DNA from: an uncultured Acidobacteriota bacterium
GTDB lineage: Bacteria > Acidobacteriota > JAQAZP01
NCBI GenBank assembly: GCA_963836075.1
Contig: CAWIIB010000001.1
Coordinates: 32,001-96,000 of the forward strand
Direction of reading: 5' to 3'
DNA length: 64,000 nucleotides
Every line of letters begins with the position of its first letter. Position 1 is the first letter of the stretch. Positions 2,211 through 7,447 of the stretch are shown here, one piece after another. The position numbers and the translations under genes are program-made. The notes below the pieces were generated by a model. The model searched no databases. It was not told where the DNA came from and worked only from the letters and a program-made list of their open reading frames with translations.

Positions 2211-3106
2211 CGGGGGTCAGGGTGGGGATGGTTGTGGTGCCCCAGCGCTTCGGTGACCGGGTCAACCCCCACATTCCCCTCCATGCTCTGTCGAGTGGCG
2301 GGGCCTTCGACTCCGCTGGCGTCTTCCACCCGATGCCCTTCGACATGCAGGGGGACATCGAGGTGCTCGAGCGGCTGTTCGCCAAGCGGGTGCTCGACCT
2401 GATGGTGCGGCGAAAGCGCCTGAATACACGACTTCGCGACGAGATGCTGACGTGGGAGCACAGCGGGTTCTCGATGGACGGATCGGTCAAGGTGGTGGTG
2501 GGGGATTACGGGCGCCTAAGAAGGCAGGTCCGCTACCTGGCCCGTCCGGCGGTGTCGGCGGAGCGGGTGGCGTATGACAAGGCCGGCGGCACGGTCACCG
2601 TGCGAAGTTCGAAGAAGGTGCACGGAGTCCGCCCGGTGGTGGCCCAGTATGACGCGCTGACCTTCCTGTCCCTGCTGGCGCTGCAGGTGCCGCCGCCCGG
2701 GGTACACATGGTGCGCTACTACGGCCACTACTCGGTGCGGAGCCGGGCCGAGCGGAGGAGGAGGGCAGGGGAGGGGCCGGCGGCTATGCACAACGAAGCC
2801 CCACCGCCGGCGAGCGAGCGGCGGCGGCGCTGGGCGGAGTTGATCCGCCTGGTGTTCGAGGTTGATCCCTTGCGCTGCCACAAGTGCGGGGGCGAGATGA
2901 AGATCATCTCGTTCATCACCACGGCCCAGGACGAGGTGATCCGCCGCATCCTCGAGCACCTGGGGGTGAGCACGGTCGTTCCCCGGGCCCACGGGCCGCC
3001 CGAGTGGGCGGTGAAAAGCGAGCAGGCGGTTCAGGAGGCGTCGTCCCGGGACGAGGAGGACTTTTCGCAGGCGCCGCCCGGTTGGGACGAGTGGGAGCCC
3101 GCGTGA
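2210..3106 (+). CDS. IS91-family (Y2/HUH rolling-circle) transposase, N-terminal zinc-binding part missing
   Basis: QRFGDRVNPHIPLHAL (HUH-like), WEHSGFS, RYLARP, VRYYGHYS, and a C-terminal FEVDPLRCHKCGGEMKII...IRRILEHLG zinc-finger motif typical of Y2 transposases. Confidence 0.8.
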   Translation, partial: AGVRVGMVVVPQRFGDRVNPHIPLHALSSGGAFDSAGVFHPMPFDMQGDIEVLERLFAKRVLDLMVRRKRLNTRLRDEMLTWEHSGFSMDGSVKVVVGDYGRLRRQVRYLARPAVSAERVAYDKAGGTVTVRSSKKVHGVRPVVAQYDALTFLSLLALQVPPPGVHMVRYYGHYSVRSRAERRRRAGEGPAAMHNEAPPPASERRRRWAELIRLVFEVDPLRCHKCGGEMKIISFITTAQDEVIRRILEHLGVSTVVPRAHGPPEWAVKSEQAVQEASSRDEEDFSQAPPGWDEWEPA

Positions 3107-3326
3107 GACCCGGATCAGGGAGCGAGGACCCTTGGGGGACGACTCCGTTCGAATCACTCTTCGTCGCGGGCGATTCTCGTCATCGGGTCACGATCCCCCT
3201 CGTTGATCAGTCGGGGGCGCACCCACCAGCGGACAACCGGTCGATTTCCGCAGGAAAGCCCCTTCAGGTTCGACCAGCACGCTCTCATCCGGCATGAGCG
3301 GCTTGACGCTCGGAAAGGAAATCCCT
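2210..3326 (+). mobile_element. IS91-family element remnant, 3' end up to a putative oriIS split by the IS110 insertion (continues at 4968-4971)
   Basis: About 220 bp downstream of the transposase stop, removing the IS110 restores GGAAAGGAAATCCCTATCC, which resembles the AAATTCCTAT-type oriIS of IS91/ISCR elements. Confidence 0.6.
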
Positions 3327-3540
3327 TCTATGAGATTCGATGTCAAGACACATCTTCCCTGTACGCTCGAAGCACGTGGCATCGAACGTCTGACCCGCAG
3401 GCCATTGCAGCCGTTACAACAAAGCCGAGATCCTCTTCGCATGGGGTCATCGATCAACTGGAGTGGACCTGATGGTATCAGGATATCGCCACTCCAGATC
3501 TTCCCGGCGGTATCAAAGCGGTGATGTTCTTCAGAATGCG

Positions 3541-3738
3541 AGAACCACCCTTCTATTCGGGTCTCCGTGGACCATTGCCTTATTCGGTTCTTCGAGGGGG
3601 CATAACCTACCCTAGGGGTCTCCAACTGGTGGGACCAGGAATTCCTTGGATGCTTCCCCTCGAACCTTTTTCGCCTCGGACCGCTTTGTCTGCTCGGATT
3701 GTCTTCAGCTGTTTTGCTGCTACGGCCGGCAAGGCGAG
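3541..3738 (-). ncRNA. Candidate bridge RNA/seekRNA of the IS110 element (ends approximate)
   Basis: Two consecutive stem-loops with internal loops: 3664-3591 (TTCGAGGGG...CCCCTCGAA, inner CTGGT/ACCAG) and 3591-3541 (AGAACC...GGTTCT, inner GGTC/GACC). Loop segments match the element's target and donor junctions. Confidence 0.7.
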
Positions 3739-4798
3739 TTATGCCGCTTTCTTTTGATACTTCGCCGGGTCGTATGCCTCCTTGTTTTTCCACATGGCCA
3801 GGGTGATGGCCGCGATCCTGCGGGCGATGGTCAGCTTGGCCAGATTGGGTTTGACCTTCTCCTCGAGAAGCCGGCGGTAGTCGCTGTACAGCGGGTTCTT
3901 CGGCATCTGGGTGATCACCGTTGTGGCCGCACCCTTGAAGACCGCTTTGGCTGTGCGATTGAAGTTGCGATTGAGGCCACGTGTTCTCGTCACCGGTGCT
4001 TTCATCCACTGACTGTTTGGCTGCTGAACCCAGTCCGAAGAGGACCGCATGACGATGGCCAGACCACAGTAGGCCCAGAACTGCCGTGACGTTCTGAAGC
4101 GATGAGGAGAGACCACGATGGCCAGCAGCTGGGCGACACGGACCGGCCCCAGGCCTGGGGCGGTTTCCAGCACTTTGGCAATGGCATGTTTGTGAGCTTC
4201 GGCCACCAAGGCCTGCTGTGCGTCGGCTTTGATCCCCTCCAGGATATCCAGTTCCTGGCAGAGCAGCTGAACGGACTGACGAGTCCCACCGTTGAGCCGT
4301 TTCAGTTCTTCCTCCCTCCTCCCCGCCGAGTAGACCGCTTTGCCCGCACCCGGCTGAACACCGCGGGAACGATAAAAACTCTTGATCCGGTTCTTGGTCC
4401 GCACCACGTCCCCGGTAACCATCCCGTAGGCCCGGGCCAGGTCGCGTAAACTGGTGAAGGCCAGCGGCGCCTTGAAGATCTTCGCTCCCAGTGCACCCGT
4501 TCGCATCCGCTCGGCCAGGGCCATCCGCATCCAGTTCGTCGCTCTTGTTCCCCTGACTCTTTTCCCCGCGAACCACCGCGATCTCGTGACGTATGGGTGC
4601 CAGCAGCTCGAACAGCCACTGACTTTGAGTGCCCTCCTCGAGGCAGAGGTGCAGTCGTCCGGGAATCAGCCGAAGATACTCCACCAACGACTGGCCGTTG
4701 GTTTCCACCACATCCGTCCGGAGCGTTTTGCCCTTCTCGCTGAGCACGGCAAAAGTGCAGCTTGACGAATGGCCGTCCAGTCCGATAAAACGGTTCAT
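3739..4798 (-). CDS. IS110 family DEDD recombinase/transposase (frameshift near 4530)
   Basis: RBS AGGAGG. FIGLDGH, CLEEG and KSDELDA supply the DEDD residues. C-terminal half has LETAPGLGPV, RFRTSRQFWAYCGLAIVMRSSS (catalytic Ser region) and IARRIAAITLAMWK. Confidence 0.92.
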
Positions 4799-5278
4799 GT
4801 GTATCCTCCTTTGATTGTGGATAGAACTTAGTTTTGGGATAACCAAGTTTGCCCCACGGCAAAGGAGGATGCCAACTTTTGTTGCTTGGACGCGTTGGGG
4901 TTGGCTTGCGCATCGGCTTGGTCCCTGGGAAAGCGGTGCGTCAGACGGGATATCTCGTATAATGCCTATCCTTTTGTACCAGTATCAAACCCTACGAGAG
5001 ACTATCAGTGCATTAGGTGGAAAAAATTTGCCACCAGGCTGCCCGCGGATGGCGAAAGTGTAAATAAATTCTTACAGTTGTTTGGCGTCATTGATCACAC
5101 GGCAGGATGAAATCGACGGATACTATTTAATTTGTGGGACTTAGACGGTAGAAACAAACTGACAACACGATGTATCCTCTTATGGCATAGTCGTTGCGAT
5201 ATGGTAGAATGGGTATCGACCAGATTACAGTGCAACTCGAAAAATCGGAGCATAGTTGCGGTTATGCAGATACATCTC

Positions 5279-7447
5279 ATGAAAATCGTTAGCACCCTTA
5301 TCATAATGCTTTCTGTTTCTGGTTCCGGGCACGGCTCTTGCCGTCATTGAAATCGGTGAACTGAGTTTCGACGACCTCGCCTTCCGAGGACCGGATCATG
5401 TCCACCGATTACACCGGGCTGATCGATGCCTGCCCCGGCTACGAGGTGGCCGACTTGGGAGCGACGCTTGTTTGGGATCGGACCTCAATACCTGGATCGA
5501 TTACGGACCCCACGATTTCTTCCCGGGAGAAGATGGGGACTTCAACAGCACTGCGCCGCCGACCCAGTATTTCGAGCTGGCCTTTGTGGACAACCTGGCC
5601 ATAAATGAATCTGGACCTGATATCGCTATTTTTGAGCTTGGCGGGGCCCAATGCCGTGCCAGTTAGTCTGGATATGGACTCGATCCTCAACCCGGGCGCG
5701 CTCACCAGCAACGAGGTAGTGGTGACCACGTCGTTGCTGGCAACTAACATCTGCGGCGAAACAGTCAACGTGGGTTACCTGGAACTGGACGGATCTCGGT
5801 TTGTCACCAAGGTGAGACGATCTACCGGTTGTTTCTCTCCTCTCCGCTGGGGGTTAATGGGGAGATCTGCGCGCCGCCCACCGGCTATGCAAACCTCGGG
5901 GTACCGGAGATCGCTGCCGTTGGCGCTCTTCTACTCAGGCCCGGAAACTCAATGATGCTCCTCTGGTGGACGAGTTGGAGGGTGTGATGGGCCAGCCTGT
6001 CCTGATGCGGACCATCCACCTGCATGCCGTGGCCCGGGATGACGGTTTGCCCGTTGGCGGTCAGCTCAGCTGTCGAGTGGATCGTGGAGCAGGCCATCGG
6101 GCCGGTGGACTTTGACGATCAGAATCAGTTTGAGACAGACGTCCACCTCAGCAGTTGAGGGATATTACCAGTTCCTGGCTGAGGTCAGCTGACGGAGAAC
6201 TGACCACCACGCGGACCATATCGATAATGGTCAGTATCCCCGACAGCACGCCACCAAGCACGCCGGACGGGCTGGATGGCTGGGCCACCTCCGGTTCGAG
6301 GATTGAGTTGGTTTGGAACGATGCCACCGACAATGTTGATGTATCGCATTACGAGATTTACCGTGACGGCTCGCTGGCCGGGACAACCACGGAGACTTCA
6401 TATGTGGACGAGGAGAGCCTCCAACTTCTCACCTCATACGCCTACGAGGTGGTGGCGGTGGATATCTCGGACAATCCCTCGACCGCCAGCGATTCGGTGG
6501 TGGTGTCCACCCTAGGCCAGATCGTCGAAGTGCTGGTGGGCTCGGCCAGTGACGACGCGGAAGAGGAACTGGACGGTACCGTGGTGCTGGGCAGCTCCGA
6601 TCTCGACATGGTGGACAACGGTGCGGCCGGTCTGCAGGTGGTGGGCCTGCGCTTTTCCTCGGTGGCCGTTCCGCAGTTTGTCGAGGTGCTTAGCGCCTGG
6701 ATCACGTTCACCGCCGATGGGACCGAGACAGACCCGGCCTCGCTGGTGATCAGGGCGGAGGACAGCGGAAATGCCGCCCCCTTCACCACGGATCCCATGA
6801 ATCTCTCCACCCGCAGCACAACGACCGCCTTAGTGGCCTGGGACAACCTACCCCAGTGGCCGGCGGAGCATTATTTTCACAGCAGTCCGGATCTGACCCT
6901 GGTGGTTCAGGAACTGTTCAACCATCCGGACTGGGCGGAGGGCAACGCCATGGCCTTCCTGATCAGCGGCACTGGCCTGCGGCGCGTCAAGTCGTTCGAG
7001 GGTGGCTATGTGCCATGGCTCCGATGTCCACGTCGAATACGAGTGGCAGAATACCCTGGCGGACCTACTCAGTTTCGTGGCCAAGCTGAGCAGGCCGGGT
7101 AAGCCTGGAGTGGGAAACCGCCAGCGAAGTGGACAACGCCGGGTTCAATCTCTGGCGCTCGGATTCAAAGAATGGACCATACAAGCAGATCAACAAAGAA
7201 CTGATCCCGGCCGAAGGCGGTGTCAGTTGGGGTGCCCACTATCAGCTCATCGATGACCGCGTGAGCAGCGGGAAGACTTATTACTACAAACTGGAAGACG
7301 TCAATTTCGCTGGGATCAGTACTTCCATGGCCCGGTTGAGGCCATAGTCCAGGTCCTGGGGGCCGTATTGCCTTCATGACAGCACGCCACCCGGCACGCC
7401 GGCTCCCATATACCGGTGAAGTCTTTCCACTGCCACTCTGCAGCTGA
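5279..7447 (+). CDS. Secreted multidomain protein with PKD-like and fibronectin type III domains (multiple frameshifts)
   Basis: Signal-peptide-like MKIVSTLIIMLSVS. Then DDGLP...VSDGELTTT (PKD-like), DSTPPSTPDGL...IELVWNDATDNVDVSHYEIYRDG (FN3), SDDAEE...GLRF...SPDL module, and LEWETASEVDNAGFNLWRS...YYYKLEDV. Confidence 0.65.

Follow-up and report, generated by a model that had tools for sequence, protein, structure and literature searches.

This study examined a stretch of 64,000 nucleotides from an uncultured Acidobacteriota bacterium (GenBank assembly GCA_963836075.1, contig CAWIIB010000001.1, positions 32,001 to 96,000), which is called the window hereafter and is numbered from its first base. 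Positions 3327-4965 on the minus strand of the window very probably constitute an IS110-family insertion sequence, laid out in the IS1111 manner, the right end of which encodes a bridge (seek) RNA. The core of this RNA is a two-loop structure of 140 nt (3532-3671, minus strand). Across relatives its stems covary, its first loop is linked to the DNA flanking the element, and its second loop is linked to the element ends. These are the relations that a preliminary description, made from the sequence alone, had left to comparative analysis after reading four guide segments in the RNA. The segments as written there (GGAATTCCT at 3645-3637, AGGGTAGG at 3613-3606, ATAAGGC at 3583-3577, and ATAGAAGG at 3556-3549), like its other coordinates and letters, are all present in the sequence.

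Structure and conservation of the RNA

A covariance model of the RNA found 3532-3671 (minus strand) as its only match in the window, at 133.2 bits and an E-value of 1.9e-37, which is among the best scores. The match begins 68 nt past the stop codon of the recombinase gene; as the sole match, it bears out the earlier placement of the RNA in the 3' non-coding end, in the manner of IS1111. Hairpin 1, which holds the target-binding loop, covers 3591-3664 (minus strand), and its stem is formed by TTCGAGGGG (3664-3656) with CCCCTCGAA (3599-3591). Hairpin 2, which holds the donor-binding loop, covers 3540-3593 (minus strand), and its stem is formed by GAAGAACC (3593-3586) with GGTTCTC (3546-3540). 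Each hairpin contains one large internal loop.

Relatives were collected as 186 stretches with 40-59% recombinase identity, of which the best 80 were kept. They come from metagenome-assembled genomes (MAGs) labelled Gemmatimonadota, delta proteobacteria or Myxococcota, and Acidobacteriota. The clade also occurs in marine-sediment metagenomes; in a same-phylum sample, the best relatives were just 39-43% identical. The two-hairpin layout is visible by eye downstream of the relatives' stop codons. An alignment of 16 sequences yielded an RNAalifold consensus of 27 pairs, 13 of them compensatory, and the covariance model built from it matched 84 of 96 sources (the window and 83 of 95 related genome loci). 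It also matched 76 of 80 metagenome loci, none of which had been used in building it, and the RNA lay downstream of the recombinase gene in every case examined.

Over 64 distinct rows, 92.8% of the cells were paired versus 79.2% in shuffles, and 17 of the 27 pairs changed on both sides, a result reached by none of 500 shuffles. Sliding the pairing partners by one column lowered pairing to 43-50%. Helices 1 to 4 of hairpin 1 were 65-100% paired, with 12 of 17 pairs compensatory; helices 5 and 6 of hairpin 2 were 88.8% and 99.5% paired, respectively, also with compensatory changes. G-U pairs are frequent in the stems (for example, 42 UG versus 19 CG at one pair), and the structure is therefore confined to the recombinase-sense strand. 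No part of the RNA varies more than loop 1, while loop 2 is conserved like the element ends, which is what target and donor loops should look like.

Boundaries of the element and its core

The element measures 1639 bp without the core. On the minus strand it consists of a short left end (167 nt non-coding, 4965-4799), the recombinase gene, and a long right end (412 nt non-coding, 3738-3327), and its relatives are arranged alike. Its outermost bases are 4965, the first of the left end, and 3327, the last of the right end. Copies of the core dinucleotide, which reads AG on the minus strand and CT on the plus strand, flank the element at 3326-3325 and 4967-4966.

The ends could not be set from copies within the genome because no second full copy exists there. 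The boundaries are instead fixed, independently of the guides, by end motifs, by the divergence of metagenome contigs, and by an uninterrupted paralogous site. Right ends of the family carry TTGACATC-N8/9-ATAGA followed by the core (3346-3325 in the window), and left ends carry the core followed by GCAT(C/T)AT (4967-4959); in multi-copy relatives, the flanks already differ immediately outside these motifs. Contigs 85-99% like the element, taken from four marine or marine-sediment metagenome runs (X1, X2, X4, and X5), diverge from the window before 3314-3322 and after 4969-4973, and contig depth is zero past 4992 in all four runs. When joined, the flanks of the window match an uninterrupted paralogous site in the same genome (C9:1818147-1818179) across the junction, over 33 nt with 91% identity. 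One X1 contig with a loose end at 3306 also reads from the left flank directly into ...CCCCT-ATCCTT. The duplicated core was narrowed to two bases by comparing junctions across elements, with CCT common to both window junctions and CTT in the relative L046. These boundaries agree with the ends implied by the preliminary description (3327 and about 4965).

The sub-terminal inverted repeat of this element is short and imperfect, comprising only GAGAT (5 bp) and TAT. Relatives with an AC core have perfect inverted repeats of 9-12 bp that start at left-end position 5 and right-end position 3.

Insertion site and target guides

The element interrupts a motif that is repeated across the genome. The left half of the target (3303-3326, plus strand) consists of TTGACG, the core CT, and between them a conserved spacer with AAGGAAATCC at its end; the right half (4966-4973, plus strand) consists of the core CT and the right target ATCCTT, and is continuous with the left half at C9:1818148 and in the X1 contig. 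The complete motif reads TTGAC(G/A), a conserved 17-nt spacer (CCGGGAAAGGAAATCCC) ending in AAGGAAATCC-C, and then TAT(C/A)C. Searched as TTGACR-N17-TATxCx at no more than 4 substitutions in 26 nt, it has 10 copies in the genome, including the interrupted one in the window; the others are at C9:144771, 206944, 208868, 1818148, 1820671, 1916195, 1918332, 2036944, and 2234732. The motif is shaped like a sigma-70 promoter, in which case the element would separate its -35 box from its -10 box. Possible identities of the motif are a functional promoter, a site for a regulator, and a portion of the end of an IS91-like element. Three of the 10 copies, including that of the window, have an IS91-like transposase gene or fragment 170-200 nt upstream of them, and the link of the target to such elements is therefore only partial.

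The left target guide, AAGGAATTCC, occupies the 5' side of loop 1 (3638-3647, minus strand) and matches the plus-strand flank AAGGAAATCC (3315-3324) at 9 of 10 positions. The register given in the preliminary description, which included the core and matched 7 of 9 positions, is off by one; in family scoring, the register of AAGGAATTCC reaches 8/9 and the earlier register 6/9. Contigs of X1 and X2 carry another base at 3641 that makes the guide perfect (10/10 in two of the four runs), and those of X4 and X5 keep the base of the window. The window's own variant of this guide has an exact match elsewhere in the genome, at C9:1820682. Two close subfamily members, L042 and L043, share the register, with 9/9 and 8/9 matches, respectively. 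Across 41 unique pairs, the left target guide was complementary to the downstream flank at 6.88 of 9 positions versus 3.36 in cross pairs (0 of 5000 permutations), with the best of three registers taken for real and control pairs alike. The best register had an offset of 2, 1, and 0 in 17, 17, and 7 of the 41 pairs; no universal register is claimed for this reason.

The 3' loop segments, read on the recombinase strand, consist of a guide of 5-6 nt, the 2-nt complement of the core, and two further bases, and in loop 1 this segment reads AGGGT-AG-GT. It comprises the right target guide AGGGT (3613-3609), the core complement AG (3608-3607), and GT at the handshake position (3606-3605), and thus covers 3605-3613 of the minus strand. 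The upstream flank is AGGAT-AG (4972-4966, minus strand), to which the guide of the window corresponds at 4 of 5 positions and at the core. In all four metagenome runs, another base at 3610 turns the guide into AGGAT-AG, a perfect counterpart of the window's upstream flank. The family statistics are in line with this assignment: right target guides agreed with upstream flanks at 5.29 of 8 positions versus 2.42 of 8 in cross pairs (42 unique pairs), and at 4.22 of 6 versus 1.53 in an independent set (23 unique pairs, 0 of 5000 permutations).

X1 also contains an independent insertion with exactly AAGGAAATCC beside the right end and unrelated sequence further out (loose end before 3315). An X1 contig with changes at 3611, 3613, and 3614 carries the right target guide TGTAT, and the flank at an X1 left-end junction reads ATACA; the two lie on separate contigs that are not physically linked, and the correspondence is therefore a hint rather than proof. 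The two loops agree in their core in 49 of 50 guide sets (AC in 29, AG in 19, AA in 1, and one discordant set) and in all 62 guide sets of the independent set (AG in 46, AC in 6, GG in 3, AA in 3, TG in 3, and GC in 1). In 9 of 14 relatives with an AG or AA core, the handshake bases of loop 1 are the same as the first two bases of the left end, and in the other 5 they half-match them; among relatives with an AC core, none of 16 showed a full match.

Two features of the neighbourhood were also recorded. An open reading frame (ORF) of 294 aa at 2222-3106 (plus strand) corresponds to the C-terminal two-thirds of an IS91 family transposase (NF033538, E 7e-19, positions 135-355 of 356), and is probably truncated at its N-terminus or broken in frame. 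Its relatives at 77-84% identity lie at C1:20609-21190 and C9:2233674, 2469545, and 2478204, with fragments elsewhere. Just outside the left end, the region 4975-5300 is markedly A+T-rich compared with its surroundings and lacks a long ORF; it would face the interrupted promoter-like motif.

Donor guides and a downstream pairing segment

The left donor guide ATAAGGC lies on the 5' side of loop 2 (3577-3583, minus strand); 6 of its 7 bases complement the left end GCATTAT (4965-4959). The earlier count is hence retained, with the qualification that the mismatch places G opposite A and is not a wobble pair. On the 3' side, the segment at 3548-3556 (minus strand) comprises the right donor guide ATAGA (3556-3552), the core complement AG (3551-3550), and GG at the handshake position (3549-3548). 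This segment is identical to the right end, ATAGA-AG-GG at 3331-3323, and guide and right end covary across the family (ATGGAAG, ATAGAAG, ACGCAAG, CTAGGAG, and CCAGAAA), so that the match proposed for the right donor guide was confirmed. The handshake bases of loop 2 were compared with the downstream flank in 66 cases, giving 5 full matches, 51 half matches, and 10 without a match; the control was similar, and there was no clear signal.

Almost all left ends have A at position 3 (for example, at 4963 in the window and in L041, L047, and L008). This base faces A or G in the guide, which leaves the left donor duplex with a conserved position at its centre that does not pair. A further partner for the left donor guide is found in the RNA itself. 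The segment GCTTTG (3514-3519, minus strand), here termed segment X, is complementary to the guide when G-U pairs are allowed, and is found at a consistent position in relatives. Pairing between segment X and the left donor guide amounted to 5.22 bp versus 4.45 bp in cross pairs (32 distinct loops, 0 of 5000 permutations) in a test limited to the first 30 nt; a broad test over 110 nt was weak (5.52 versus 4.97). A segment at this position is present in L033, L043, L048, L049, L006, L015, and others, and it changes with the 5' segment of the donor loop. Covarying examples include TCGATAC/GTATCGA, CGAAGCA/TGCTTCG, and TAGCCG/CGGCTA. Owing to the recurring mismatch and the better pairing with segment X, the role of the left donor guide in guiding DNA is less sure than that of the other three guides. 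Segment X could form a pseudoknot, close a donor multi-loop of the IS1111 type, or mimic the left end. A pairing of the 3' strand of hairpin 2 with the downstream repeat GAAGAAC (3532-3526) was considered as well and rejected (5.10 versus 5.07, with 2456 of 5000 permutations as high).

Recombinase gene

The recombinase gene starts at 4798 (minus strand), behind a good ribosome-binding site, and ends with a stop codon at 3741-3739. Its N-terminal part (DEDD/RuvC-like) extends over 4534-4798 up to a frameshift and aligns to residues 1-88 of the homologues P0001 and P0002. These 88 residues alone reach PF01548 only at E 0.15, and align over their full length to homologues with PF01548 and PF02371. 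The C-terminal part (3739-4530 including the stop codon, 263 aa) carries PF02371 (Transposase_20, E 5.2e-11) and is 46-63% identical to P0001 and P0002, both of which carry PF01548 and PF02371. A surplus of one base at 4518-4526 (minus strand) shifts the frame between KSDELDA and MALAERMRT. The alignment with homologues demands that KSDELDA be joined directly to MALAERMRT, which means one base too many in the window, and a single base at 4518-4525 is absent from all related contig depth in the four metagenome runs. The recombinase frame is therefore open in these relatives. The surplus base of the window either disables the gene as a genuine mutation or arose as an error of assembly.

The homologues are 344-350 aa long. 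Full-length P0002 scored 136 bits (E 1.6e-39) on NF033542, "IS110 family RNA-guided transposase", the cut-off of which is 140, and aligned to the IS621 transposase (8wt6) at E 5.2e-6 over residues 176-257 only. The recombinase was at most 27% identical to any plasmid-borne IS110-family gene among 72,556 plasmids. The C-terminal motif reads GLAIVMRSSS in the window and GLAIVTRASA and GLAVISRSSS in homologues, without P and with S/A in place of G. The middle and C-terminal part of P0002 also matched NF052498 (TIGR-Tas RNA-guided endonuclease) at E 6.1e-20 and 72 bits, the cut-off being 100; this match reflects a common RNA-binding module.

A search of the bacterium's own genome found no second full copy of the element, and a query with the recombinase gave one match there, with no other close recombinase. 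A 139-nt fragment (L002, C9:1083543-1083681) is 81% identical to 4760-4898 of the window, that is, to the left non-coding end and the first recombinase codons. No gene body or RNA follows it; it lies near IS91-like fragments at C9:1077031-1080852 and looks like a remnant in insertion-sequence debris.

Remainder of the right end and a putative junction promoter

The preliminary description had left about 210 nt at the end of the element unexplained. A putative junction-promoter box, a hairpin, and segment X can now be described there (3531-3327). The sequence TTGACA (3341-3346, minus strand) is a putative -35 box, and CATTAT (4959-4964, minus strand), at positions 2-7 of the left end, a putative -10 box. 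TTGACN is placed exactly 16 nt before the core end in 24 of 40 distinct right-end candidates, and positions 2-7 of the left end read CATCAT (8) or CATTAT (4) among 22 distinct left ends. Joining of the ends puts CATTAT 17 nt after TTGACA. This arrangement suggests a putative promoter that is split between the two ends and would form only when they are joined in a circle; junction promoters are known for the IS110 family (PMC12288879).

About 20 nt before the -35 box, an apparently conserved hairpin (ACGTTCGA...TCGAGCGT, 3363-3389, minus strand) appears in the minimum-free-energy fold, and by eye in the alignment of relatives with different stem letters. A perfect 9-bp hairpin (CTGGAGTGG ... 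CCACTCCAG) at 3458-3497 (minus strand) encloses a second small hairpin; among the aligned relatives it occurs only in the window copy and looks like an insertion into the right end. In the relative L048, a Polyangiaceae MAG, the right-end terminus with its -35 box is present twice, 63 nt apart (305 and 368 nt after the RNA). Part of the L048 tail is duplicated, and the whole is a tandem duplication of the element end.

Discussion

According to Durrant et al. (2024, PMC11208160), 93% of IS1111 elements have a predicted bridge RNA in the right end, and experiments have demonstrated a seekRNA for members of IS1111 (Siddiquee et al. 2024, PMC11187229). The order of guides in IS1111, with the top-strand match first and the bottom-strand match second, is described as reversed relative to IS110 (PMC11187229). 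Given such predictions and the reported order, the kind of RNA found here is already known. The expectation of a new natural bridge recombinase is thus upheld insofar as covariation across the family supports a bridge RNA, and needs to be qualified in that such systems have been published before.

The element resembles the IS1111 members ISEc11, ISPa11, and ISKpn4 in that the RNA lies in a long non-coding region downstream of the recombinase and the left end is short. As in the published description of IS1111, the 5' guide complements the downstream flank as read in the recombinase sense, and the 3' guide shares its sense with the upstream flank (PMC11187229). Sub-terminal inverted repeats, 7-17 bp in IS1111, are 9-12 bp in relatives with an AC core, and this element has only TAT..GAGAT. 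A split junction promoter, putative in the present case, is a shared feature (PMC12288879), and the homologues of 344-350 aa compare with a reported 330-350 aa. In contrast, the recombinase stands far from catalogued enzymes (no more than 27% identity, and 136 bits, just under the NF033542 cut-off of 140), and its C-terminal motif GLAIVMRSSS is not the GL-P----S(t)G given for IS1111 (PMC11187229). The donor loop also differs, being a plain internal loop with an extra pairing partner downstream, whereas a multi-loop is mentioned for IS1111 donor loops by Durrant et al.. Membership of the IS1111 clade is not claimed because the clade motif is absent, and the element is filed under the IS110 family with an IS1111-type layout.

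The left guides of IS621 base-pair to the bottom strand, and its right guides to the top strand. The right guides extend to the core, and the two handshake bases that follow pair with the other of the two DNAs once strands have been exchanged (PMC11208158). Similarly, the present RNA has two pseudo-symmetric loops and a CT core, with 5' guides in the sense of the CT strand and complementary 3' guides covering the core and then two bases at the handshake position. The IS621 layout invoked in the preliminary description accordingly holds for the strand with a CT core; read along the recombinase strand, the guides come in the reverse order, which is of the IS1111 type. Unlike in IS621, the RNA lies at the 3' end rather than at the 5' end upstream of the recombinase, the strand that encodes both recombinase and RNA has AG as its core, the 10-nt left target guide of this element abuts the core without covering it, and the left donor guide has a conserved mismatch. 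The similarity of the recombinase to 8wt6 is also weak (E 5.2e-6, residues 176-257 only).

With regard to the target, IS4321 and IS5075 of the IS1111 group are reportedly site-specific and target the terminal repeats of Tn21-family transposons. The preferred site of the present element is likewise a repeated sequence tied to another mobile element, though the tie is partial; it differs in being a promoter-like TTGACR-N17-TATxCx sequence, with 3 of 10 copies near an IS91-like gene. ISPpu9 and ISPpu10 of Pseudomonas putida, from the IS110 group, share the AG dinucleotide at both ends on the recombinase strand; they recombine at this invariant AG and form circular intermediates, with a junction promoter in some members (PMC12288879). 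The bridge RNA of ISPpu9, however, lies upstream of the recombinase gene and targets REP sequences (PMC12288879).

By analogy with IS621 and the seekRNAs of the IS1111 family, the RNA may be expressed and bound by the recombinase, and the complex may catalyze recombination as follows. The two guides of loop 1 would read the sides of the insertion site on opposite DNA strands, and those of loop 2 would read the element ends as joined in the excised circle. Both 3' guides would also carry the complement of the common core dinucleotide (CT on the plus strand), the presumed site of strand exchange. A recombinase tetramer would hold both loops and thereby bring donor and target together. The junction promoter (TTGACA and CATTAT, 17 nt apart) would transcribe recombinase and RNA only from the circle.

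Several observations weigh against a functional bridge RNA element. The window copy has a frameshift in its recombinase gene. Among relatives, the position of the left target guide with respect to the core shifts by 0-2 nt, and the guide of this element does not cover the core. Nearly all relatives show a mismatch between the left donor guide and left-end position 3, and in several elements segment X complements the 5' segment of the donor loop better than the left end does. When single sequences were folded, the two hairpins of the preliminary description were recovered, but their energies were no better than those of shuffles (z -1.57, -0.52, and -0.37, not significant), and the sequence of the window alone therefore does not prove the structure; the fold of the whole end (3320-3745) was weakly better than shuffles (z -2.16). 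A permissive search of Rfam 15 (E up to 10) over 3000-5300 gave seven matches, all far below the gathering threshold and none over 3532-3671 of the minus strand. None of the listed sequencing runs that contain this stretch is on record as RNA.

Alternative explanations were weighed against these findings. The bridge RNA gene may be genuine and yet belong to a dead or non-autonomous relic, movable only with a recombinase supplied in trans, none of which is evident in the genome; this is about as likely as not. The frameshift implies that the copy may not be autonomous: the surplus base at 4518-4526 is absent from all related contig depth in four runs. Together with the two guide positions that are unlike the closest relatives (3641 and 3610, each of which creates a mismatch to the element's own flank), it suggests that the copy may be decaying or non-autonomous. 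The genome also holds just one full copy and the 139-nt fragment at C9:1083543, and the recombinase query, with its one match, shows no other close recombinase. However, faulty assembly could account for the frameshift, the guide variant that has T at 3641 exactly matches C9:1820682 and may hence be a working variant rather than a product of decay, and the RNA stems are intact (133 bits, among the best scores). It is also possible, though rather doubtful, that the 5' segment of the donor loop mainly pairs with RNA about 10-25 nt after hairpin 2, in a pseudoknot or multi-loop, and that the left end is read differently or not by this segment. The complementarity of segment X at a consistent position with covarying examples, the permutation result for 32 distinct loops (5.22 versus 4.45 bp, 0 of 5000), and its better fit in several elements than that of the left end point in this direction. 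Yet the effect size is small, the left end also tracks changes in the 5' segment (GTATCG in L043, and ends starting with AC in L036, L044, and L048), the basal stem of hairpin 2 (helix 5) covaries, and the companion pairing of the 3' strand of hairpin 2 was unsupported (5.10 versus 5.07, 2456 of 5000).

Sequence analysis cannot separate an RNA from single-stranded DNA of the same strand, and the listed runs include none recorded as RNA; the hairpins might thus act as DNA, either as single-stranded guide hairpins like those of IS200/IS605 or as protein-binding sites. This is very improbable, considering that the recombinase belongs to a family with experimentally established RNA guidance (PMC11208158; PMC11187229), that the hairpins lie 210 nt inside the element, away from the cleavage sites, and that the layout agrees point by point with the parts of published bridge and seek RNAs cited above. 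It is scarcely credible that the structure is an ordinary 3' untranslated region or terminator of the recombinase mRNA with chance matches to flanks and ends. The non-significant energies of single-sequence folds and the shortness of the individual matches would fit such an explanation; the cross-pairing controls and permutations in two independent sets and the covariation of the core in 49 of 50 and 62 of 62 guide sets argue against it, and neither hairpin precedes a T run, none being found behind either of them.

Within the preferred reading of an IS110-family element with a bridge RNA, a more speculative and rather unlikely extension concerns segment X, which might act as an RNA mimic of the left-end strand that holds the left donor guide until donor DNA arrives, with the conserved mismatch tuning the competition. 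Combined with the homing of the lineage between the -35 and -10 boxes of a promoter-like repeat, this would represent a distinct variant of bridge recombination. If true, mimicry by segment X would constitute a self-gating switch of the donor loop, so far undescribed for bridge RNAs.

In sum, the element is a new example of an already known form of RNA-guided DNA recombination, with unusually clean comparative support and two notable loose ends, segment X and the conserved mismatch of the left donor guide. For the genome itself, the finding amounts to ordinary annotation, namely one probably disabled insertion sequence in a repeated promoter-like motif, and it answers no long-standing question. 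To our knowledge, no guides other than bridge and seek RNAs specify both partners of a DNA recombination, and the natural diversity of these RNAs is raw material for engineering. The clade described here is remote from the enzymes studied so far and offers a compact RNA of 140 nt with clean internal loops, many natural guide/target pairs, six core dinucleotides (AG, AC, AA, GG, TG, and GC), and natural single-base guide variants among near-identical copies.

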